Shown one piece after another: positions 1 through 42,268 of a DNA stretch of 64,000 nucleotides. A model generated the notes under the pieces. The model saw only the letters and a list, made by a program, of their open reading frames with translations, ran no database searches and was not told the origin of the DNA. The position numbers were made by a program, and so were the translations under genes. The stretch's first letter is position 1; the number at the start of each line of letters is the position of its first letter. The DNA lies in assembly GCA_000002445.1 (NCBI GenBank), contig CP000066.1:736001-800000 (forward strand), read 5' to 3'. Source of the stretch: Trypanosoma brucei (taxonomy: Eukaryota).

Positions 1-773
1 TAACCGGGATTACGAACCGTGCCTGCAATAAGTCCGGTGTACTGGCGGGAACCTCCTTCAATCACACGAAGTGCGTCGTCTGCATTACGCAACTCCCCTC
101 CAAAAACAAATTCATTTGGCTTCTTCCCATCAGCAGTTTTGTACTCGCGGAACCATTTAACAATGGTAGCCTTCAGCTCTTGTGGCACATTATTTAAAGA
201 CCCGTACGTACCGGTCGCATCGGGTCCAATGGCCTCCGTAATGACTTTCCAGTCGGTTTCCCCCTCGTCAATAAGTCCCAACAACCCGAGGACTCGAACT
301 GCCCTTACGGAACCAACTGCAAAGGGATTTGACGATAATTCAACGATATCAATGGGATCACCATCACCCCCACACGTCGTCAGTTGGTCCATTACTGAAG
401 GATCCTCCCATGTTTGTGGCGCAAAACCATAGTTGAAGGGGACATCACCATACTTGAAGAACCGCAAAGCATTGCCCTCTTTCTTTAATGTGTCTTGAGC
501 TATCGGGTTGTGCGGTTCTTCCTTCACGAGTTCCAATTTGGCACGCGTCCTTCTGGGAATCTCACATACAAATGTAATGACAGATGCATCAGGTGATGGA
601 TGTAGCGGAAGATCATGCCATGCCGAGCGCCTCGCAACGGATCCGGCCTCGCTGCTTGTGAAGTACATGCGCCACGCCCGCGTTCCCGCTGCTCCCACTT
701 CCTGCAATGCCCATGCGGGGAGCATAATGCCTGCTCCGGTCATCCCTTTAAACATAATTGATGTTGGGCGCAT
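1..773 (-). CDS. Soluble inorganic pyrophosphatase (family I). The C-terminus runs off the left window edge. It is absent from the ORF track because there is no in-window stop.
   Basis: Manual minus-strand translation gives MRPTSIMFKGMTGAGIMLPAW...SAWHDLPLHPSPDASVITFVCEIPRRTRAKLELVKEEPHNPIAQDTLKKEGNALRFFKYGDVPFNYGFAPQTWEDPSVMDQLTTCGGDGDPIDIVELSSNPFAVGSVRAVRVLGLLGLIDEGETDWKVI...VKWFREYKTADGKKPNEFVFGGELRNADDALRVIEGG. This aligns motif-for-motif with yeast IPP1 (FHDIPL, EIPRWTNAKLEI, NYGAFPQTWEDP, DNDPIDV, LDEGETDWKVIAI, EWFRIYKIPDGKPENQFAF). The ATG is at 773 and a ~40-aa N-terminal extension precedes the PPase core. Confidence 0.8.
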   Translation of the reverse strand, partial: MRPTSIMFKGMTGAGIMLPAWALQEVGAAGTRAWRMYFTSSEAGSVARRSAWHDLPLHPSPDASVITFVCEIPRRTRAKLELVKEEPHNPIAQDTLKKEGNALRFFKYGDVPFNYGFAPQTWEDPSVMDQLTTCGGDGDPIDIVELSSNPFAVGSVRAVRVLGLLGLIDEGETDWKVITEAIGPDATGTYGSLNNVPQELKATIVKWFREYKTADGKKPNEFVFGGELRNADDALRVIEGGSRQYTGLIAGTVRNPG

Positions 774-1198
774 ATTATAACCTGTATTGACAATACACAC
801 GTTTTCACCCCGACACTTTCCATAACCTGCTGCAGCGCGCAGCTTTGGAGATTCCCCTGTTCTTTCCGATGGGAATGAAAGAAGAAAAGCGGCAAAGGGA
901 GCAAAGAAGAAGAACTGGCACCAAGAGCTATGGTGAGAGCCATCAATATATTATTTTTTTTCCGATTTTCATGCTGGGTAACCCCAAAAACATCTGTTCT
1001 GTTTTTCCCTCATCCTCCTCCCTTTTGTTTCACACCATCCCATCATCACACACATTCTGAAACTATACAACACGGGACTATTGGTGACAGTACTTCAAAC
1101 GTCCACGAAACGCGTGGCGCTGCAACAAAACACAAATACGTGTTACTCCTTCTCCCTCTCTCTCTCTTACACACGCAGTCATGACTCCCAAAGCACCA

Positions 1199-1843
1199 TC
1201 ACCCCCTAAAGAACCCAATGATGCTTCCAGTGGCACGGCACATGTAAGAGCTCACCGTAGCAACTGCTGTTCGTAAGAAAGGCACAAAACTGAGCGCGTA
1301 CCACATCATGGATAGCACCTGAACAACCGCGAAGAATACAGCCAAAAAGCTCGACTTCCAATACAGAGTAAAAAAAAGTGTGAGCAGGAGAGATACGATA
1401 AATGCAATTCCAGCCTCCAACCGCTTTGCGCTAAAGAGAGAGTGTAGTTGTTGCTTGATACCCACAAGAAACATTGTGGAACCGAAGCAGAACATATTCC
1501 CGACGGTAAGGAAAAACGCAAATTTCTTAGGGAAGAGGGCAACCGTCGGAGCGAATAGTGCAGCAATGACTATAAAAACAATTCCCATCCCGAGTACCAT
1601 AAAAAAAGCCCAAAGTCGTTGAGAGTAGGAGAGATCCATCATCTCCCGCACATCTCCTATAAGTCCGGTATCCTCCGGTATATCCAAAACCTCAACCTCC
1701 GCTGGGGGCTCATCGGAAAACATCCCAAACGCCTGACGCTTCACACCGCCAAAAAAATTTCCCGCCGAGCTGAAGGCGGATCCAAAACTCTCCTGCGCAT
1801 TGCTCAGCATCATGGCTGCTAAACCAACAAGAGAAACCATCAT
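1199..1843 (-). CDS. SFT2/Got1-like vesicle-transport membrane protein
   Basis: ORF 1199..2035. The C-terminal 150 aa (LWAFFMVLGMGIVFIVIAALFAP...FAVVQVLSMMWYALSFVPFLRTAV) has the 4-TM SFT2 signature. The upstream 64 codons are Cys/Phe low-complexity read-through of a pyrimidine tract, so the start is placed at the MMVSLVGL ATG (1843). The start choice is uncertain by a few codons. Confidence 0.65.
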   Translation of the reverse strand: MMVSLVGLAAMMLSNAQESFGSAFSSAGNFFGGVKRQAFGMFSDEPPAEVEVLDIPEDTGLIGDVREMMDLSYSQRLWAFFMVLGMGIVFIVIAALFAPTVALFPKKFAFFLTVGNMFCFGSTMFLVGIKQQLHSLFSAKRLEAGIAFIVSLLLTLFFTLYWKSSFLAVFFAVVQVLSMMWYALSFVPFLRTAVATVSSYMCRATGSIIGFFRG

Positions 1844-1849
1844 AACAAT

Positions 1850-1935
1850 AACGATAAAAAAGAAAGATAAGAATAAAAAAAATAATAATAACGAGAATAG
1901 TAAAACAACAACAAATGAAAGATTATATGTAAACA
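1850..1935 (-). promoter_or_regulatory. Polypyrimidine tract (minus-strand sense) upstream of the SFT2-like CDS. It is a candidate trans-splicing / polyadenylation signal region.
   Basis: The + strand reads ataacaataacgataaaaaagaaagataagaataaaaaaaataataataacgagaatagtaaaacaacaacaaatgaaag (purine-rich), i.e. pyrimidine-rich on the coding strand immediately 5' of the start. In kinetoplastids such tracts direct SL addition to the downstream gene and polyadenylation of the upstream one. Confidence 0.5.
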
Positions 1936-2679
1936 AACCATCGGAAAATGGATAAGTACAACAACAATAACAATAAGAATACAGCGGGAACAAATGGAGA
2001 AAGAGGCACACCATGGTGCTCAATGCAAATTCCATTCAAAACACTCAATAATACAATAACAAAACAGACCACGCTGAAAGTATGTGGGTGAGCACACTAC
2101 AACAGTAGAGGTTGGTTCAGAAAAAAACTGTTGGAGGAAATCAAACACATCCCCACATAATGCAAAAACAACAATAATAATGATGTTGATGATAACAAAA
2201 CAAAGGGGAGGTTTCTCCTACTTTTTAAAATAATAGTTGATAGCCCACACACACACACACACACGCACCTGAGACTGAAGACTCATCCTTGGAAAAAAAA
2301 AACGATATGACACATCAAAGACAACAAACCGCCTTCGGAAATTCGTCAAACATCACCGCAATGTTTCCGAACATTTCAACCACAAATTGCCACAGCGATC
2401 AAAAATATGGCGGCCGTCCATTCCGAACACAACCGTTAATTTATTGCATCTGCAAACGGCTTCCAACACACGGATACCGTCACTCCCTCCCTCCCTCTCT
2501 CTCTCGATATTTAACCACCATCACATCGCAACACGGCCTTAGTTCTGACAGCATTCCCCTGCAGAATGGAAAACAGCAGAAACAGATATAAAAGAACACG
2601 TAAGTTAATCCCTCTTTTCTCTTGATTTAAAATAAAGGAAAAAAATGCGCGTCACCCACACCGCTATACTCATCTCTAG

Positions 2680-3582
2680 TTACACCATTTTGTAACTATA
2701 TAACCACGGCTGTGGCCCCTGCCGAACTCCATCAAATGACGGTGCCTCACGCATTTTATATCTTGATAACACTACGATAACTTCAGCGGGTTCATCAGAG
2801 CCCTCCGTATTAACATCCCCTCGAGTGTTTTGGGATAATTTCACTCGACGAAGGCACCGCATGAAATGCACTCGCCCACCCCTAACATTAAAATATGAGC
2901 AGTTCTTAATTAGAAGGGAGAAAGGAACCCCGTCAGCATGCGTATGAACACTGAAAGATGAATCAAGTTTACGTATCATTTGGAAGAGCTCCTGCGGTCG
3001 CACCTGAACCTCATCGTAGAAATGATTTGCATCGCGCTCGGAGTCTCTCAACGAGGAGGAATCGCCGACACCACTCCTCGACACGGTGTTTTGAATGGTG
3101 ATGACATCATTTTCCGCTACAAATTCTACCGGAAGCGGAGGTCCATATTTTAAAACGGCATCTCGTGCAAGAGAATCAAACCGTTGCTGAGCAATACTTT
3201 GTCCACTATGAGCATCCACGGTATCGTAACCGCAATGTTGCGCACGGGACAAATGCGAGCGTTCATTCCATTCGTTTGAAGTCGATGGTACCGTACGGCC
3301 GTAAGCGGTTTCATTTGCAAGCGCTTCACTCTGCTGCTGATGAAGCGCCTTAACATCTGCTGCGGTAAGTGGGCTTTGAATACCCAAAGCAGAGGAACCG
3401 TGTCGCCGCTTCCATTTTTCTTCTCTTCTCGTCGTTGCCGCCTGTTGTTTTAAAAATTCGTTCATGCAAACCCGGTGCGTCCATTGTTTTGTAGCTCTTC
3501 TGCCTGTGGAATTGACGACGGTGGCTAAACGGCGCTCGACACGTCGCTGCCGCCCGGTTGTAGCCAAAACTCCGCGAAACAT
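2680..3582 (-). CDS. Hypothetical protein (300 aa) with an Arg-rich N-terminus
   Basis: Clean 300-aa ORF with ordinary amino-acid composition and no homopolymer runs. The N-terminus MFRGVLATTGRQRRVERRLATVVNSTGRR resembles a mitochondrial presequence. No recognisable domain. Confidence 0.55.
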   Translation of the reverse strand: MFRGVLATTGRQRRVERRLATVVNSTGRRATKQWTHRVCMNEFLKQQAATTRREEKWKRRHGSSALGIQSPLTAADVKALHQQQSEALANETAYGRTVPSTSNEWNERSHLSRAQHCGYDTVDAHSGQSIAQQRFDSLARDAVLKYGPPLPVEFVAENDVITIQNTVSRSGVGDSSSLRDSERDANHFYDEVQVRPQELFQMIRKLDSSFSVHTHADGVPFSLLIKNCSYFNVRGGRVHFMRCLRRVKLSQNTRGDVNTEGSDEPAEVIVVLSRYKMREAPSFDGVRQGPQPWLYSYKMV

Positions 3583-4400
3583 ACCTCAGAACTGAAGAGT
3601 TGTATCGTGAAGAAACACACCATGAAAAGGATTTTTGTTGTTGTTGTTGTTATTTTTTTTTTCAAAAAGGAAAAAAAAGGAAAGGGAGAAGGAGAAGGAG
3701 GGGAAAGGAGGATCATAACAATGGACAAAAGGACCCACAGGTAAAGTTAAAACATATTAGCCTTAACGGAGCATAAAAGAGAATGGGAGAAAGGAAAAGA
3801 GTAAATTACAATGGAGTGCACAAAAGGCATTATCGTATCACTGATGTGCGGAGAGAGGTCCCGCCATGCCCTCCAGTCTATAATGTGCGCGGTCAGCATA
3901 AAAACACAACATATCACGCTCCAAAATAAAGATAGCAGTCGCGAACAAATAAATAGAATTAGGATTCTCGAGATTAGGCGAAACGCGTCAATATACTCAA
4001 CTCAGAGAAAATAAAGCCCCATCCTCCCTCCCCCTCCCTCTCTTCCCTTGCTAACGCGCAGCCAAGTCCAAATAATCACGTACGTATATCATGACGCGGT
4101 GGTAAAGATGAAGACCAGGCTTTTTTTTCGACGCAGCATGCAAAAGGGAAGAAAAAAAAAAAAAGAAACATCGCTCCTTCGGCACAACAACCAAATACAA
4201 AAAAGACAAGCGTGCCTCCGGGTGCGGTGTTCCAACTTCCTCCTTACACACTGCAAGCTGCGCGCACATGCAAGGGCGAGAAATACCGATATACATAAAT
4301 ATGAAAATGGAGCGAACCTACGATGAGAAGCGTAATGATGATGAATATCTCCTTTCTTGTAAAGTACAGGTAGCAGTGGTGTGATCCTCCCTAACATGCA

Positions 4401-6365
4401 CTAAGGAATCTGCGTCTCAGCTTTTTTTTTTACAAGTGGTATGTGTTCTGACTGCGACAATGCGTTTCGGGTTGAGACTTTAGTGATGCGGAGGGCCTCC
4501 CGCTCACGGGCGGACTGCACGAACCCAGTTGGATCCACCCGTAAGTGGGCAATCACCATCGAAATGATGAAAGCAATAAAAAAGAGAATTGCCAACAGCA
4601 ATAAAGTGCCTCGATTCATTCCTACGCCCAATTCATAGTCCTCGCCAGGTGATAACATCGCCGGGTCGGAGGAATTTGAAGATTGCTGCTGGTAGACAAG
4701 GTAAGAACTCATCATTCCTCGATCCTCATGATCAAGAGAATGGCAATGGTACACCACCTCACCGGGATAACTGGCGGCCCTCCAGCGCAGTACCGTCACA
4801 CCATCAAATATGGGAATTGTGTCACGAATGTCACCGGGAAAAATACCATAGTCTGACATGGACACATTTTGATGCATTCCTCCTTCTCGAGGTACAAAAC
4901 TAACGAACTTAAAGTGATTGACATGTGCGTGAAATGGATGAGGCATGGGATCGTTGGGGTCCCCGAAGATGTGGGCCTCCACGACCGCATTGAGAGGCAC
5001 CACAAAGCCGTGATATTTGTCGTAGTCGTGACCCTTTTGTCCCATAAAATGCTCATAATAACATGTGGTAGAATTCACGAGGGAAGAACAATCAGTACCC
5101 TGCCCTATAATATAGTACGATCCCTTACCTCGAAGGGTTAACTGCGAAAAGGAAATGGACCTCTTCACAGCAGCTCCCTTCGTGTTTAGGTAACGGACAC
5201 CGGTAAGGTTTGAGCGCACGGGAAACTCCACGAGCATCGGGTGCCTACTCACTGATGCAGCAACAGCAATGTAAAAAACTGTATCACCTGTTTCCACCAA
5301 GGAAACGGGAAATGTAGTCTTTTCCGTATAATTTCCATCACATTGAACCACCACATCGTAACGAGTGGCAGTGGTAAAGTACAACCAATGGGCAATAACC
5401 TCGCGTGACTTTGCAAGTGGTACGCCATCCGCAGCAACAATGTGGAACCGACACGCCTTCGGAAGACTGATGTTGAGGTGGCAGGAGCCGGCTGCGAATG
5501 CCATGCGAAAAAGTTTAGCCTCTCCGCTGTGGACTGTCACGGTGGGCTTATGTTGTCCATTGACGAAAAAGAGGTCTGAAGTTAACTCCAATTCTTTCCC
5601 CTTCCTGTTCATTATGCGAGGTCGTGAAGACATGTTGTTTCGTATGGCCTTGTCCACAAAATCCATAGTGCGACCGTCACATAACTTGGAGGCACGTAAG
5701 CGATAGAGGTGAATAAACAATGTAACTTGAGGCATGCTGAGCAGTGTGTCATCTCCCTTTACGTCATCCACAACTAAAGCACCGAACAAACCACCCATTA
5801 ACAAGAGGTGTGTGGAGCCATGAGCATGAGTGTGATACCAGTTTAGTCCGGGAAGGTGATCATCCGGAATAGGCAATCTATACCTAATGGACTTTTTGGG
5901 TTTCACTTCCTTGAAAACATCGTCGATATTTGGATCACCATGCACACCGTGGAAGTGAATGTTCGTTGAATTTACTCCATGGTAAGTGTACATGTTTTCT
6001 TCCCCATCTCCATAATCTTCGCTACCCAAGTCGTTAAACAGATTGAGAACGAGTTTCCCTCCAGGTTTGACATGTATAGTCGGCCCTGGAAGTTGTGGAA
6101 CACCATTGTAGACGTAAAGCCGTGTCTTATATGTAAACACGGCGCCTTTTCCAAACCCCTTCAATGGAATGGTCACCTCCACGGGACGGACGTTGAGGTT
6201 CAGCAGCGTGTCTCCTCCTGATGGAAAAATATCCGTTAATGGAACCAACTCTTCACATGCACGAGATATAACCACTAAGGGAAGGAGCAAATGCAAATGC
6301 AAATGCTGGAAGAAGCGGTTCAGAACCGCAGGCGCGGAGTGTTGGCCGGTGATTCGTCCATTCAT
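4401..6365 (-). CDS. Three-domain multicopper oxidase (Fet3/laccase-like) with signal peptide and C-terminal TM anchor
   Basis: All four Cu-ligand motifs are present: HFHGVHG, WYHTHAHG, HPFHAHVNHF, HCHSLDHEDRGMM. The start is placed at MNGRITG (ATG 6365), followed by the hydrophobic stretch LHLHLLLPLVVISRA. The C-terminus has the hydrophobic segment LLLLAILFFIAFIISMVIA plus a ~45-aa tail. There are many N-x-S/T sequons. The upstream 91 codons of the track ORF are low-complexity read-through. Confidence 0.85.
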   Translation of the reverse strand: MNGRITGQHSAPAVLNRFFQHLHLHLLLPLVVISRACEELVPLTDIFPSGGDTLLNLNVRPVEVTIPLKGFGKGAVFTYKTRLYVYNGVPQLPGPTIHVKPGGKLVLNLFNDLGSEDYGDGEENMYTYHGVNSTNIHFHGVHGDPNIDDVFKEVKPKKSIRYRLPIPDDHLPGLNWYHTHAHGSTHLLLMGGLFGALVVDDVKGDDTLLSMPQVTLFIHLYRLRASKLCDGRTMDFVDKAIRNNMSSRPRIMNRKGKELELTSDLFFVNGQHKPTVTVHSGEAKLFRMAFAAGSCHLNISLPKACRFHIVAADGVPLAKSREVIAHWLYFTTATRYDVVVQCDGNYTEKTTFPVSLVETGDTVFYIAVAASVSRHPMLVEFPVRSNLTGVRYLNTKGAAVKRSISFSQLTLRGKGSYYIIGQGTDCSSLVNSTTCYYEHFMGQKGHDYDKYHGFVVPLNAVVEAHIFGDPNDPMPHPFHAHVNHFKFVSFVPREGGMHQNVSMSDYGIFPGDIRDTIPIFDGVTVLRWRAASYPGEVVYHCHSLDHEDRGMMSSYLVYQQQSSNSSDPAMLSPGEDYELGVGMNRGTLLLLAILFFIAFIISMVIAHLRVDPTGFVQSAREREALRITKVSTRNALSQSEHIPLVKKKAETQIP

Positions 6366-7210
6366 TCCTTCAGGTTTATTTAATTTTCGGTCACAGCCAC
6401 ACACACAAAAGAAAACACAGGCACGTGTGTACGCTGCGGTGCCGTCCCTGGGGCTGTAAATCTTTTCTTCAAACCCCCCACTTTTATACGATGAGCTAGT
6501 CGGTGTACAAATATATATATATATATATAAGAATGCCCCACTAACAGAGCTGTGCATATGAGCAAAAAAGAAAAAACAAACAAACAAATGAATGAATAAA
6601 CCAAAGTGGAAGATGAAAACATATGAGAAGAGAAGCAAGGAAACAAATATTCACAACCAAACAGAAAGCGAAACAACATATAAAATAGACAAAACCCGTA
6701 TGTGTGTTTCTTTATTCCCCCCTTTTTCCCCCCTCCCCCTCCCTCCAATGAAAAAAAAAAACACCTCCACACATATCCTCCTTTTCAATGCACATGCAAA
6801 AAGACAGAGAGAGAGAGAGGGAAAAAAAAAGAGAGAAAAAGAAATAATGAATTTATACTCACTCATACGCCCACGCCAGCGCAATGGAAGTGCCCAACTG
6901 AATCCAGTCAACAACTAAATACAGAGGGAAAAAGAAGAAATGGGGGAACTGGCGGGGAGGGAGAAGGGGGGGGAAAAAAAAAGAATGCATCTCAGACAAA
7001 TCGAAAGAATTGAAATGCACCATACGCTACACAGCATACCGTCACGCTACAACAACAAAAAAAAAAAAGAAAAATCCTACCTATCATGCTTCCTCCCAAC
7101 CAAAAAACCAAAACATCAACAACGCAACGAAATGCAATAAAAGCGAATAACAGTAATGATAACTCCTTCGCTCTACTGCATGCAAAGAAGAACAAAACAA
7201 CAACATACAA

Positions 7211-15811: not shown

Positions 15812-16279
15812 TTTATGTTGGTTATCTGCCGCACTCTTTTTTTTTTCAAAAAAAAAAAGTAACAACTATAATATTAAGGAGTATTATTAATATTACTACT
15901 ACTGTGAAATATTTAATGTATTCTGGTAAAACGTCGTCACTCACTTCATGAAAAGAACAAAACAAAAAAAACGGAAAAGGAACAAAATGTGAGCAAATGA
16001 ACGAATGAATGAGACAAGCGTAAAATAAACACGTTGCACAAACAGAGAGAACATGGAATCCAAAAATGTTTTTTTTCTGCTTTTATTTTTCTCTCTCTTT
16101 GCCGCGGAACCAATTTAAAAAAAAAAGTAGAATAGAAAAAACAGGAAAAGAACACGGAAAGAAAAAAAAAGACACAAACCTGAGAAAAAAAAAAAGAAAA
16201 AAAGAGAAAAGAGAAAGGGAAAAATAAATATATAAAAATCACAATGAAGTGGCGCCTGAATAACAACTGATAGCAATCC

Positions 16280-16309
16280 TTAATAATAATAATAATAATA
16301 ATAATAATT
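16280..16309. repeat. (AAT)n trinucleotide microsatellite
   Basis: ttaataataataataataataataataatta. Confidence 0.95.
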
Positions 16310-16517
16310 AATATCATCACTATCATAAGAGTAATAAGAAAGGATGCTGTGAGGACACGTTTTGTACAAGAAGGGAGAAACATAAACATAAACACGTGAA
16401 GGAAAATAATAACAACAATGAAGGAGTACCAACGTCAAAACATGGAGGCAACACACAATTCGTTTCAGATGCTTGCCGTGAAGATAAACAATTTTTTTTT
16501 AAATGGGTATATATTTG

Positions 16518-16548
<31 letters not shown>

Positions 16549-16958
16549 TTCGTACGCACAAATTGTGTTTCAATACGGATAATAAGAAAGAAAAAAATGA
16601 AGGAAAAAACCAATGACACTAATGTTATTTATATAAAGTACTTTCTCATATAATTTTTTATTTATAAATAATGGGGTATAAATATATAAATATATAAATA
16701 TGAGTATGAAAAGGGAGAAAAAAAAAAGAGGAGATGGATATGGATATGGAAGTGAGTGGAACTGTGAAAAGGTGGATGAAGTTGTTATGTTACGGGGCTT
16801 TTGCTTTTTCTCTATTTTTTTTTTTCGTTTTTGGTTTTGCTTTTGCTTTTTGTAGAAATTTGGTTCGAGTTTCTTTTCCTTTGCTTTTTTTTCTCGATGC
16901 TTTCTTTTTTCTTTCTTTTCTTTCTATTCCCTATTCCTTATATACTCTCCTCTCTTTC

Positions 16959-16989
<31 letters not shown>

Positions 16990-18957
16990 AATATATTTTT
17001 TTTTAAAGCACAAACTTCTAATGTCAAGCATACCGCCTTAAACAATCAATAGAAATAAATAAATAATAACGCCACATAATTTAAAAGAAAAAAAAATCAA
17101 AACTGCTCGTCATGGGGATCTCACGCCGGAATCCAAAACAAAACAAAACAAAAATTGGAAAAATAACGAGAAGTAAAAGACATGCGGCATTTATTTCCAC
17201 TTGGAAGCCGGGACTTTTCTTTTCCTTTCTTTACTTCCTTTGGGCCTCTGTTTTGTAATATATATTTATATATTTGTTTATTTATTTATTTATTTATTCC
17301 TCACAGTTCAAAATAATTTTTAAAAAATATTGGGACAAATAGGAAAAGATGATGAACATGAAGATGAAAAACGACGAAGGGGAAAGGAACGCAAAAAAAA
17401 AAAGGGAAAAAGGGAAAAAGAAACAAGGGATCAAGAAAAATTACACAGAACTCAAAAAATTAAAAAACAAAACATCAAATAAAAAGATACCGCCAAACAA
17501 ACAACCGAATGAATAAACAAACAAACAAACGCGCACAACACACACAAAAAAAAATTTTAATTCCCACTCACAACGAAATAAAGGCAACAACACACCTCAA
17601 CATCCAAGTTATTGTCACCACACACATAATTACACACGCACGCATATGCGTGCAAGCATCAAACAAAAAAAAGAACAAAACAGAGCGATTACGCTAGTTA
17701 TGCGACGGAATAACAGAATAAATACAGATATAAACATATAAATATAGAAATATAATAAATACAAAAATGTATAGAAATACGTATATGTGTTACTACCGTC
17801 ATCACATCATCATCATCATTATCATCATCATTTTATTATTGTTACATTTACAATATTTATTACATTGTTATTTTGTTGTTATTTTGTTGCGGTCCGCTTC
17901 GTCCAATCCCGTTTTCATCTTCATTTTCCTCCCTTTTTGCGTTGCAAATCAAATCCAACAGACCACTAATCACTCCATTCCATTCCATTCCACTTCTCTC
18001 ATTTCTATTTTTTAAAAAAAATAAAAATAAAAATAAAAAATAATATTTGCTCCTTATCTTTCAATCCCTCTTTTCATTCATATTTCTTTTTTCTCTTCTT
18101 TTCTTTTCTCTTCTCTTCTCTTCGTTTGTTTGTTTACCTTTTGTTTTTTGTTCTTTTTTTTTCCTTCTTTTGTTTTACAAATAATGAGCAAAACACAAAC
18201 ACAAGAAGAAAGTACATAATTCCTCTTTCTTTCCCCTTATGCACATGAGTGTCTCACATATATATATATATATATACACCACGTGAGTGTTTATAATAGA
18301 CGTAACGAATAGGGCAGAAAATAAAAATAAAAAAAAAAACAACAACGCAATAATAAAGTAATAAAGTAATATAATAATAGAAAAGAAAAAAAGTAGGAAA
18401 AGGAACGAAGGAAAGAAGGAAGGAAAAGGAACGAAGGATAGAAGGAAGGAACTATATAAACAAACATTTAAGTAGAATAAAAATAAACATAAACAATGAC
18501 ATAATGAGCAAAACTAAACTAAAACAAAGCCAAAAACAAAAAAAAGACACCAATTATAATAACATAATTAAAAAAATATATGAAAAAGAAAAAAAGGTAA
18601 AAGAGATAAATTGAGAACACATCAAACTTATTTCCTCCTCCCCCCACCTTTTTTTTTAATTCATTTTTTTTCTTTCTTTAATTTTTTTTTCACTTCAGTT
18701 TATTTTATTTTTGTATTACTGTTATTTCTTTTTTTTTCCTTCTTCTTCTAATTTGTCATATTGTTGTCATTGTTTCTTTTTGTTTTTCTTTTTCTTTTTC
18801 TTTTTTTTTGTTTTGACTTCACTCCATTCATAAGTTTGTTACGGGGAGGAAATGACATGGACAATAAAAATGGAAGAGAAAATGCAAACACTTGTACACG
18901 GTAGACTCAAAAACAAATCCCCGCGCCTCTTCTTTTTTTTTTCATTTGACACCTTCA

Positions 18958-19012
18958 TTTCAATTTCAATTTCAATTTTAATTTCAATTTTAATTTTAAT
19001 TTTAATTTTTTT
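18958..19012. repeat. (CAATTT/AATTTT)n minisatellite
   Basis: catttcaatttcaatttcaattttaatttcaattttaattttaattttaatttt read directly. An imperfect inverted copy lies at 19318..19392. Confidence 0.9.
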
Positions 19013-19317
19013 GTGAGTGTTTTGTGTGTGATTTTTTCGATTTCATTTAATTTTTTGTTTGTTTGTTTGATTGTTTATTTTAATCATTTATACAAATATG
19101 TTTTACTCAAATATTTTCCGTAGGAGTTTTTTTGCTATCCTCAATTTGTGTGTGTGTGTGTTTTTTTCTTTTCTTTTTTCTTTTCTTTTTAGGTGTTGTC
19201 CTCTCCTTTTGGTTTCTTTTCGTTGAATGATGTTTAGTTTCGCCACTTTCACACCTGTGATGACTGAAAGAAATAATTAATGTCACAACAATTGAATGAA
19301 ATCAAAAAATTAAAAAA

Positions 19318-19392
19318 ATTGAAATTGAAATGAAATTGAAATGAAATGAAGGAAATTGAAAAATCAAATGAAATGAAAGAACGACAGAGATG
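19318..19392. repeat. (GAAATT/GAAAT)n minisatellite, reverse complement of the 18958..19012 array
   Basis: gaaattgaaatgaaattgaaatgaaatgaaggaaattgaaaaatcaaatgaaatgaaag. Its reverse complement is catttcatttgatttttcaatttccttcatttcatttcaatttcatttcaatttc. Confidence 0.85.
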
Positions 19393-20577
19393 TGAAGAGA
19401 CAAATAAAAATTTTTTTTTGAAAAAAAAAGGTGGAAAATAAAAATAAAAAGTAACGACCGCAACTCTTTTCCTTTTCTTTTCATATACACCTTCAACTTT
19501 TGTTTTCTTATATAAAAAAGAAAAGAAAAGAAAATCTTGATTTTGTTTTTGACTTTTTTTTTTTGGTTCTTTTCAACCCTCTAATCTCTTTTTTTTTATT
19601 TTTTTGCTTCACATATATAAATAAATATATATAAATAAATATATATATACGTATAAATATCTTTCTTTATGCTGAGGTGTATATGCGCAAGAGTAAATAA
19701 AATTTTAAAACACGTGTAACTGCACAGTGAAGGGGGGAGGAGAAAAAAAAAATGCAAGTGAGAAATAAATCTCCTTTCGTTAAGAATTTTAAAAAAAAAA
19801 AAAAGTAAACAAGGAAAAATTATGGGCCAGCTGTGGCGCAATCTCTAGAATAAACAAAAAAAAACAAAAAAACAAAAAAAAAGAAACGAAACGAAAAATT
19901 ATTTCACCTTTCATTTATTTTCTGTTTGGTTGATTGGTTTCCTCTTTTAAGTTCCGCGTTCGTGACACTTCTTCTCTTTTCTTTTCCTCTTCCCTGCCCT
20001 CTTATTTTCTTTTTCTTCTTTTTTTTTTCGAATTTTATTGTTAATATCTTTCTTTCATTCGTTCGCTTTCTTATAATTTATTTGATCCATTCACCTCCCC
20101 ATCACTTGTAGTCATTAGTCCCTTTTATGTTTTTTTTTCATTTATTTAGTTATTTATTTACTTATTTATTTCCTCTTCTCCTAATTTTATTTTAGTCATC
20201 ACAAAACGTCATTTTATTTTTTTTTCCTTTCTTTCTTAATTTCTCCTCCCCTCTCCCTCTCCCTCTCCCCCTCCTCTCCACCGAAACCCCCAACCCGTTC
20301 CTTCGTTATTCGTTTCTTTTCTTCCTTTTTTTTTTTTTGCTTTTCCTCGTGTGCATCTCTCCCATCAATTTTTGTTACGTTTTGCTTTTTGCTTTTTGCT
20401 TTTTTTTTTTAAAGAAAAAGAAAACGTCGGGCCAAACACAAACACGCACACAAATGTATAGACTTATTGATTTATATTTATATATATATATATATACAAA
20501 AATAATAAAACAAACAAATATATAAAGCAAGCAAATAAAATAAAACAAAAAAATAATAATAATAATAATGTGACACT

Positions 20578-41461: not shown

Positions 41462-42268
41462 TCATGTCGGTGGATCGACGTCCAACCTTCCAACCACATG
41501 ATTGGAACCTAACTTTGCGTCACACCCCGAATGCACATGCATGGAGCCATCGAAACTGTTATCCACCCATATTCCCTTTCCACCCTGAGACACAAAAGCA
41601 CAATGCATGCCACATTCCCTCACCATATTCCCTTGCACAACAGGGTCACTGCCCTCCGTAACATATATCCCAAACTTCGATACATGTTCTACAGAATTCC
41701 TTTCCACAGAGCCCGATGATTGCCCTCGGAAGTAAAAGCCAAAGAGAACATCGCGGACACGATTGCGTGCAATGACTACCCTCGCATTGTTAGCGTGCAC
41801 GCCATTGACACGGCACTCATAAATGTCACAATCCTCCACCTCTCCCATTGAGCCGGTGGAAAAGTAAATGCCGTCACCACCCGATTCGCAGTGATGAATG
41901 CGTGAGCGTCTGACCGTCAATTTTGCCGCCTCCCCCACCCGAATTCCATCACATCCGTGATGAATGTCGCACTCTTCAATGACGGCATGTCCTTTGCGCA
42001 CATCTACGCGTCCACGCACCTGTAGGCCCTTCAAAGTGGCATTTGAACCAATAACAATACCATTTGTAACGATGGTTTCACTTTCAGTAAGGGACGCATC
42101 CCGCTCCGCTGTGACGGTGATGTCTTTAAATACTTTAGGCAGTTCCTCATAAAGGCCAGGTTTCAGGAGAACCGTGTCGCCATCCACAGCAGCGTTTATG
42201 GCCTCTGTTATGGAGCTGTAAGCCCCTTCCTCACCTGGATTGACAACGTGTGTTGTAGTTTCCATCAA
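41462..42268 (-). CDS. Right-handed parallel beta-helix (PbH1/pectin-lyase-fold) repeat protein (268 aa)
   Basis: A series of ~22-25-aa PbH1-like repeats, each with a hydrophobic-x-x-N/C-x-hydrophobic core and Gly: NGIVIGSNATLKGLQVRG, AVIEECDIHHGCDGIRVGE, LTVRRSRIHHCESGGDGIYFST, GEVEDCDIYECRVNGVHANN, VVIARNRVRDVLFGFYFRG, SVERNSVEHVSKFGIYVTEG, VVQGNMVRECGMHCAFVSQG. No signal peptide. Confidence 0.65.
   Translation of the reverse strand: MMETTTHVVNPGEEGAYSSITEAINAAVDGDTVLLKPGLYEELPKVFKDITVTAERDASLTESETIVTNGIVIGSNATLKGLQVRGRVDVRKGHAVIEECDIHHGCDGIRVGEAAKLTVRRSRIHHCESGGDGIYFSTGSMGEVEDCDIYECRVNGVHANNARVVIARNRVRDVLFGFYFRGQSSGSVERNSVEHVSKFGIYVTEGSDPVVQGNMVRECGMHCAFVSQGGKGIWVDNSFDGSMHVHSGCDAKLGSNHVVGRLDVDPPT

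Follow-up and report, generated by a model that had tools for sequence, protein, structure and literature searches.

A prokaryote-type multicopper oxidase core on a predicted membrane anchor in Trypanosoma brucei

The Thermus multicopper oxidase (MCO), McoA, McoP, and Escherichia coli CueO (1KV7) are metallo-oxidases, and McoC of Campylobacter jejuni (3ZX1) is named as one in the title given by its PDB depositors. Tth-MCO of Thermus thermophilus HB27 (2XU9) and McoC are soluble, periplasmic proteins that carry a Met-rich hairpin or segment over the type 1 (T1) copper. Saccharomyces cerevisiae Fet3p (1ZPU) and its vacuolar paralogue Fet5p consist of a signal, a glycosylated three-domain ectodomain, a C-terminal transmembrane (TM) segment, and a short tail. 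We analyzed an MCO gene of Trypanosoma brucei that lies in a 64,000-nucleotide stretch of contig CP000066.1 (positions 736,001 to 800,000 of assembly GCA_000002445.1; referred to here as the window, in which all positions are counted from the first letter). An original prediction, made from the letters of the window, had presented the product as a Fet3-like, membrane-anchored candidate ferroxidase without a visible permease partner.

An MCO of Trypanosoma cruzi has been named "TcFet3" (BCY84_15293) in a 2024 copper-trafficking preprint (bioRxiv 10.1101/2024.04.12.589278). According to the passages of that preprint that deal with TcFet3, the protein has all copper ligands and "D278 and Y354, but not E185," its mRNA is 13-fold higher in metacyclic trypomastigotes and rises 3- to 4-fold with the copper chelator neocuproine, and searches of T. 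cruzi with BLAST, PSI-BLAST, and Foldseek yielded no homologue of Ftr1 (bioRxiv 10.1101/2024.04.12.589278). The same passages describe trypanosomatids as being without canonical Ctr importers, Atx1/Ccs chaperones, and the Fet3-Ftr1 system; they contain bioinformatics and mRNA levels only, and they file TcFet3 under Fet3 without a note of prokaryote-type affinity (bioRxiv 10.1101/2024.04.12.589278).

We confirmed that TcFet3 is the orthologue of the gene in the window. Both published TcFet3 quantitative PCR primers match exactly within the MCO gene of T. cruzi Dm28c (L001, 2870-2889 on the plus strand and 2964-2983 on the minus strand), the product of which is 56% identical to the T. brucei protein. 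The gene order (i.e., MORN-repeat gene, 104-amino-acid [aa] small open reading frame [ORF], MCO gene) is common to T. cruzi (L001 and L002, positions 1-3896) and the window, which further supports the orthology. A Fet3-like oxidase without a permease has thus already been published for the sister species, and the novelty offered here is modest, given that the gene is annotated and that its T. cruzi orthologue has been reported with a Fet3 reading and a remark on the lack of Ftr1. Beyond that preprint, we found in the literature searched no other named trypanosomatid MCO and no publication on a trypanosomatid Ftr1 or on this MCO. The new elements are that the MCO core is of the prokaryotic CueO/Thermus/CotA type and not of the Fet3/laccase type, that only one of the three Fet3 specificity residues is securely conserved, and that the family has a conserved Cys-containing insert and an invariant ExxPL tail motif. 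The protein is at most a modest variant, with a bacterial-type core on a predicted eukaryotic membrane anchor.

Copper ligands and family placement

The MCO ORF occupies positions 4401 to 6365 of the minus strand, starts with ATG, and encodes 654 aa plus a stop codon. Its product matches T. brucei brucei TREU927 XP_843880.1 (UniProt Q57ZM5) at 100% identity and 100% coverage; this entry is named "hypothetical protein, conserved" at NCBI and "Multicopper oxidase" in UniRef, and its gene sits on a contig of chromosome size (1,653,225 bp). The coding sequence, domains, and copper ligands are as follows.

4401..6365, minus strand: complete MCO coding sequence, 654 aa plus stop, identical over its full length to XP_843880.1/Q57ZM5
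5763..6125, minus strand: cupredoxin domain 1, aa 81-201 (Pfam Cu-oxidase_3, E = 6e-11)
5949-5957, minus strand: H137-x-H139 (H137-F-H139), copper-ligand motif in domain 1
5826-5834, minus strand: H178-x-H180 (H178-T-H180), copper-ligand motif in domain 1
5328..5597, minus strand: cupredoxin domain 2, aa 257-346 (Pfam Cu-oxidase, a weak match just below the cut-off)
4686..5048, minus strand: cupredoxin domain 3, aa 440-560 (Pfam Cu-oxidase_2, E = 2e-18)
4923..4952, minus strand: D472-P-M474-P-H476-P-F-H479-A-H481, with a T1 His and two trinuclear-cluster His (from the motif and alignments)
4713..4748, minus strand: H540-C541-H542-SLD-H546-EDRG-M551, with the T1 Cys and His, two trinuclear-cluster His, and the axial Met (from the motif)

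All four copper-ligand motifs (i.e., HxH, HxH, HxxHxH, and HCHxxxHxxxx[M/L/F]) were thus present, as the original prediction had stated, and the ligands were invariant in an alignment of 32 relatives that included the Bodo saltans protein and bacterial proteins. An AlphaFold model built from this 32-sequence alignment had a confident ectodomain (mean pLDDT, 84.8; pTM, 0.80) and could be superposed on three-domain MCOs at 2.2-2.7 A across some 400 residues. Because every copper ligand is invariant, the T. brucei protein is very probably a functional three-domain MCO; the earlier expectation of such an enzyme is borne out by the three cupredoxin domains detected with Pfam and by the ligands.

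The MCO fold can also serve a catalytically dead or structural role, as in bacterial SufI/FtsP or the coagulation factors, and SufI is without the MCO copper ligands. In the present family, by contrast, none of the ten His, the Cys, and the axial Met varies, whether in Bodo, Trypanosoma, Leishmania, or the bacterial relatives. These invariant ligands make a copper-less structural protein so improbable that it is essentially excluded.

MCO orthologues (42-56% identity) were found in every sampled member of Trypanosoma and the Leishmaniinae, and the free-living bodonid B. saltans has a longer relative. The next relatives were bacterial or metagenomic proteins annotated as "FtsP/CotA-like multicopper oxidases" (E = 1e-25 and weaker). 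A further group of relatives of 800-1100 aa (P0023, P0025, and P0027-P0033, from Logan and EukProt assemblies; E = 1e-58 to 1e-100) has a larger architecture and may belong to other euglenozoans.

We scored a profile of 18 MCO orthologues against PDB chains, with the following results (profile score; E value; value in the last table column).

Thermus MCO: 104 bits; 4e-29; 36.1 (27% identity)
McoC: 87 bits; 6e-24; 33.1
CotA: about 53 bits; about 1e-13; not listed
CueO (E. coli) or CueO-type chain 6evg: about 38 bits; about 1e-9; 33.7
Fet3: 30 bits; 1.3e-6; 26.5 (rank 15, 18% identity)
Ascorbate oxidase: 24 bits; 7e-5; 25.3

The score of Fet3 was at the level of the copper nitrite reductases, and the closest relatives by both sequence and fold lay outside the Fet3/fungal laccase clade. 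The stretch of domain 1 was the part most similar to Thermus MCO. In alignments made with hhalign, the orthologue profile aligned with CueO end to end (442 columns) and with Fet3 in domains 1-2 only (209 columns). The best NCBIfam model was the CueO equivalog, at 60.5 bits, which is below its cut-off of 525. On the basis of these results, the catalytic core belongs to the prokaryote-type branch that includes Thermus MCO, McoC, McoA, CueO, and CotA. We make no claim of horizontal transfer, because fungal bilirubin oxidase also stands on this branch.

The Fet3 and CueO sequences used for residue comparisons were 100% identical to PDB chains 1ZPU_A and 1KV7_A, and residues are given in the usual numbering (i.e., chain index plus 21 for Fet3 and plus 28 for CueO). 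The T1 axial residue, Met551, was invariant and is like that of CueO, whereas Fet3 has Leu instead (i.e., HCHIEWHLLQGL, in the verified Fet3 sequence). The description of the protein as Fet3-like is therefore not upheld with respect to descent or active-site detail, considering the scores (30 bits for Fet3 versus 104 bits for Thermus MCO) and the axial Met.

Membrane topology, insert, and tail motif

Outside the catalytic motifs, the following features were identified or predicted.

6258..6365, minus strand: predicted N-terminal signal region, aa 1-36 (long basic n-region, core LLLPLVVIS, then SRA)
5001..5144, minus strand: kinetoplastid-specific insert, aa 408-455 (invariant C426 and C435; near-invariant E438, 17/18)
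4539..4610, minus strand: predicted single C-terminal TM helix, aa 586-609 (mean Kyte-Doolittle value, 3.2; AlphaFold helix, 586-610)
4404..4538, minus strand: predicted cytosolic tail, aa 610-654, about 45 aa (the sequence after the TM helix)
4431..4448, minus strand: tail motif E640-H-I-P643-L644-V645 (E, P, and L invariant in 18/18 trypanosomatid orthologues)

A signal is kept in all MCO orthologues, including that of Bodo, and the orthologues have ordinary signal peptides. In T. brucei, the n-region ahead of the hydrophobic core is unusually long (about 25 aa), so that the N-terminal signal of this protein is plausible but atypical. The signal peptide of the original prediction accordingly stands with regard to the hydrophobic core and the normal signals of the orthologues, while the T. 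brucei n-region departs from the usual length. The predicted C-terminal TM segment is likewise conserved in every orthologue, Bodo included.

The protein contains 8 N-x-S/T sequons, compared with 3.3 +/- 1.7 in composition-preserving shuffles (p about 0.014), and four of these are conserved among the trypanosomatid orthologues (N132, N298, and N500 in 18/18; N431 in 16/18). Six Cys residues that are not T1 ligands (C229, C295, C305, C342, C426, and C435) are invariant among the orthologues. The six Cys together with the four conserved sequons fit folding and disulfide formation in the secretory pathway. The features expected of a Fet3-type layout (i.e., a signal, a glycosylated ectodomain with many sequons, one C-terminal TM segment, and a short cytosolic tail) are all predicted, in agreement with what had been proposed from the sequence of the window.

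The insert at aa 408-455 aligns to the position of the Met-rich insert of CueO; its counterpart here is not Met-rich, with a Met content of 2-4% in all orthologues. In the tail, the ExxPL motif is followed by V, I, L, or M in 14 orthologues and by S or R in 4. The remainder of the tail shows no conservation, and the B. saltans protein does not have the motif. Acidic dileucine signals of the form [DE]xxxL[LI] bind adaptor complexes. The resemblance of ExxPL to an acidic dileucine of the form [DE]xxxL[LIV] suggests that it may act as an endomembrane sorting signal.

These features set the trypanosome protein apart from its nearest solved relatives. Compared with Tth-MCO and McoC, which are soluble, it is predicted to be membrane anchored and is about 200 aa longer, with a predicted eukaryotic signal peptide, TM anchor, and cytosolic tail and with conserved sequons, six extra invariant Cys, and an insert that is not Met-rich. 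It is like CueO in the end-to-end profile alignment, in the placement of D472 and M474 on CueO D439 and M441, and in having an insert at the same place. Unlike CueO, it falls far below the equivalog cut-off (60 versus 525 bits), M474 is unconserved, there is neither a Met-rich helix nor a Tat signal, and the protein is predicted to be membrane anchored. Its likeness to Fet3p and Fet5p resides in the overall layout and, for Fet3p, in a shared Asp at position -4 from the T1 His (D409 in Fet3).

Metal-site residues and candidate substrates

The ferroxidase specificity of Fet3 is associated with E185, D283, and D409, and we sought counterparts of these residues by alignment. D472 aligned by BLASTP with Fet3 D409, the Asp four residues before the T1 ligand His413, and was kept in 17/18 orthologues; the nearby D469 was kept in 18/18. 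The same column corresponds in hhalign to CueO D439, a ligand of the substrate copper, and this feature is thus not specific to Fet3. M474 falls on CueO M441, and it is Met in three Trypanosoma sequences only (N, I, V, T, or R elsewhere). The other ligands of the CueO substrate copper, M355 and D360, fall in the nonhomologous insert of the MCO alignment. Two further positions are concerned.

5592-5594, minus strand: E258, aligned with Fet3 E185 (column not conserved; low-confidence alignment)
5283..5285, minus strand: D361, Asp or Glu in 18/18 orthologues, in the hairpin that joins predicted strands 350-356 and 362-369 of domain 2

The E258 column reads E,E,E,Q,E,V,E,E,T,E,V,N,E,T,E,T,E,A in the 18 orthologues, with V in T. 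cruzi and Q in T. vivax. This variability agrees with the statement, in the TcFet3 passages of the preprint, that the T. cruzi protein is without E185 (bioRxiv 10.1101/2024.04.12.589278). For D283, the profile alignment with Fet3 ends before the residue, leaving it without a secure counterpart; on strand order and topology, D361 is a possible counterpart of Fet3 D278/D283. Of the three-residue comparison that had been put forward for this protein, the D409 equivalent is therefore conserved, while the E185 column is variable and D283 has no secure match.

Taken together, these features lead us to favor, with moderate confidence, the reading that the protein is a type I glycoprotein and a lumenal or exofacial MCO that would oxidize Fe(II) and/or Cu(I), be loaded by a copper ATPase, and work without Ftr1. 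It would then be a functional analogue of Fet3 and CueO and not an orthologue of Fet3. In the mechanism we propose, a one-electron donor would be oxidized at the T1 copper (H476, C541, and H546, with axial M551), the electrons would pass via the Cys-His bridge to the trinuclear cluster (H137, H139, H178, H180, H479, H481, H540, and H542), and O2 would be reduced to water there. Copper would be loaded in the secretory pathway by a copper P-type ATPase, and the site of action of the enzyme would be an endomembrane compartment or the surface, with no Ftr1 permease involved.

We propose a metal cation, Fe(II) and/or Cu(I), as the substrate in preference to a bulky phenol, for four reasons. First, most of the closest solved relatives are metallo-oxidases; SufI, which is copper-less, and an enzyme of Sulfurimonas with the deposited name bilirubin oxidase stand out as exceptions in the top matches. 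Second, D472, four residues ahead of the T1 His, is a conserved Asp with equivalents in Fet3 (D409) and CueO (D439). Third, further conserved acidic residues (D469, D/E361, and E438) lie in loops that are expected to surround the T1 site. Fourth, the insert sits where CueO shields its T1 copper from bulky substrates.

Several of these points bear on the alternative that the enzyme is like a laccase, bilirubin oxidase, or ascorbate oxidase and acts on phenols, catechols, haem breakdown products, or ascorbate, in endomembranes or in the environment. The lack of a Met-rich segment is in keeping with such an enzyme. On the other hand, an invariant acidic cluster and a conserved Asp four residues before the T1 His are features of cation-oxidizing MCOs; fungal laccases, CotA, and bilirubin oxidase are not known to have an acid at this position. 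An insert at the place where CueO covers its T1 copper would also be expected to hinder bulky substrates. We regard an organic substrate as unlikely on these grounds, although the possibility is also named in passages of the T. cruzi preprint (bioRxiv 10.1101/2024.04.12.589278).

A true Fet3-like, high-affinity uptake ferroxidase at the cell surface, passing Fe(III) to a divergent Ftr1 or to an unrelated permease, would share the type I layout of Fet3, and it would account for the conserved D409 equivalent (D472), for the alignment of E258 with E185 in T. brucei itself, and for the invariantly acidic residue in the hairpin that bears D278/D283 in Fet3. The name TcFet3, chosen by the authors of the T. 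cruzi preprint, also speaks for it (bioRxiv 10.1101/2024.04.12.589278). Against this stand the placement of Fet3 far below the prokaryote-type MCOs by sequence and fold, the axial Met in place of Leu, and the variable E185 column (V in T. cruzi, Q in T. vivax, and, among the other orthologues, T, N, V, E, or A). The ExxPL motif would also point to internal compartments over stable residence at the surface. Moreover, trypanosomatid iron uptake is explained by known routes, namely, the transferrin receptor or a ferric reductase with a ZIP transporter, the latter needing Fe(II) and not Fe(III). No Ftr1 gene was found in the window (see below), nor, according to passages of the preprint, by PSI-BLAST or Foldseek in T. 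cruzi (bioRxiv 10.1101/2024.04.12.589278). We therefore consider a surface uptake ferroxidase of the Fet3 kind to be quite unlikely.

The preferred reading, that of a metal-oxidizing MCO working without Ftr1, has to be weighed against a number of observations. By fold, the scores of CotA and the bilirubin oxidases, whose substrates are organic, come close to those of the metallo-oxidases, so that family placement alone does not fix the substrate. The Met-rich segment of the cuprous oxidases is absent (Met content, 2-4%) and M474 is not conserved, and the Fet3 E185 equivalent is not conserved among the orthologues. A Cu(I) site like that of CueO is thus disfavored by the missing Met-rich segment, and an Fe(II) site like that of Fet3 is disfavored by the variable E185 column. 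The closeness of D361, E438, and D469 to the T1 copper is an expectation. In the literature searched, we found no enzymology, no knockout or knockdown, and no dedicated localization study of this MCO. Passages of the preprint state that TcFet3 mRNA in epimastigotes does not respond to added copper or BCS and that the TrypTag signal of "TbFet3" is reportedly weak or reticular cytoplasmic (bioRxiv 10.1101/2024.04.12.589278).

A more specific version, which we offer tentatively and hold to be improbable at present, is that this kinetoplastid MCO of prokaryotic type, sorted through ExxPL, would be an endolysosomal or acidocalcisomal cuprous (and/or ferrous) oxidase downstream of a copper P-type ATPase. 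If so, it would reproduce, inside a eukaryotic organelle, the CopA-CueO pair by which bacteria detoxify copper and would have no part in iron uptake.

The MCO is conserved from the free-living Bodo to Trypanosoma and Leishmania, and knowing its substrate would reveal the point of contact between copper and iron handling in these parasites. A ferroxidase would imply a new Fe(III) acceptor or a role in export or detoxification, and a cuprous oxidase would explain copper tolerance in macrophages and insect guts. A bacterial-type core without a close human homologue is also of some interest for selective inhibition. The surprise for specialists is low, and the protein is a reasonable target for work on trypanosomatid copper and iron biology.

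Genomic surroundings and gene model

We scanned 25 window ORFs of at least 200 aa with Pfam and detected no FTR1 (PF03239), ZIP, or ferric reductase domain among them, which agrees with the earlier remark that no Ftr1-like gene is visible in the window. Every long ORF that has a Pfam match is on the minus strand, and no common function links these ORFs. They encode Got1/Sft2, the MCO, a MORN-repeat protein, eIF2-alpha, a Tc-38 family protein, an RRM protein, an LRR protein, an inosine-uridine nucleoside hydrolase, a mitochondrial carrier, a trypsin-like peptidase, a TPR protein, an actin-like protein, a START-domain protein, a beta-helix protein, a phosphodiesterase, a protein kinase, an RTEL1-like helicase, and a condensin subunit. 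Given that all of these ORFs are on one strand, the data fit a location of the whole window within a single polycistronic transcription unit. Genes in trypanosome polycistrons are not clustered by function. Because neighbors in such a unit are not functionally linked, the absence of Ftr1 from the window carries no information, and the argument from a missing permease partner is given no weight here.

The 5' flank of the MCO gene has the following probable feature.

6366..6640, minus strand: probable trans-splice acceptor region, with polypyrimidine tracts followed by AG (from reading of the sequence)

An example in this flank is a polypyrimidine tract at 6561-6590 with an AG at 6550-6551. An in-frame extension of the ORF to a TTG at 6638 (745-aa ORF) was considered as coding sequence and rejected, since the added part is low in complexity and rich in pyrimidines and since the annotated start of the TREU927 protein is at 6365. 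The start of the gene model varies within the T. brucei group (654 aa in TREU927, 648 in T. b. gambiense, and 750 in T. equiperdum); the longest of these models probably runs on into the pyrimidine-rich 5' flank (6366-6638).

A scan of the window (1-64000) at Rfam gathering thresholds gave no RNA family. Between the Tc-38 family gene and the RRM gene, there is an AT-rich gap of about 4.7 kb (15900-20500; GC content, 0.26-0.29) without an ORF of at least 150 aa and with small tandem repeats at 18098-18175, 18395-18451, and 18957-19009. A second AT-rich stretch (46300-48850; GC content, about 0.31), located between ORFs of 1178 and 304 aa, holds short ORFs only. The beta-helix gene (41462-42268, minus strand) encodes a right-handed beta-helix protein of 268 aa that matches Pfam Beta_helix (6e-22) and NosD, "periplasmic copper-binding protein" (1e-11); its domain is bacterial-looking, and the link to copper is by family name only.

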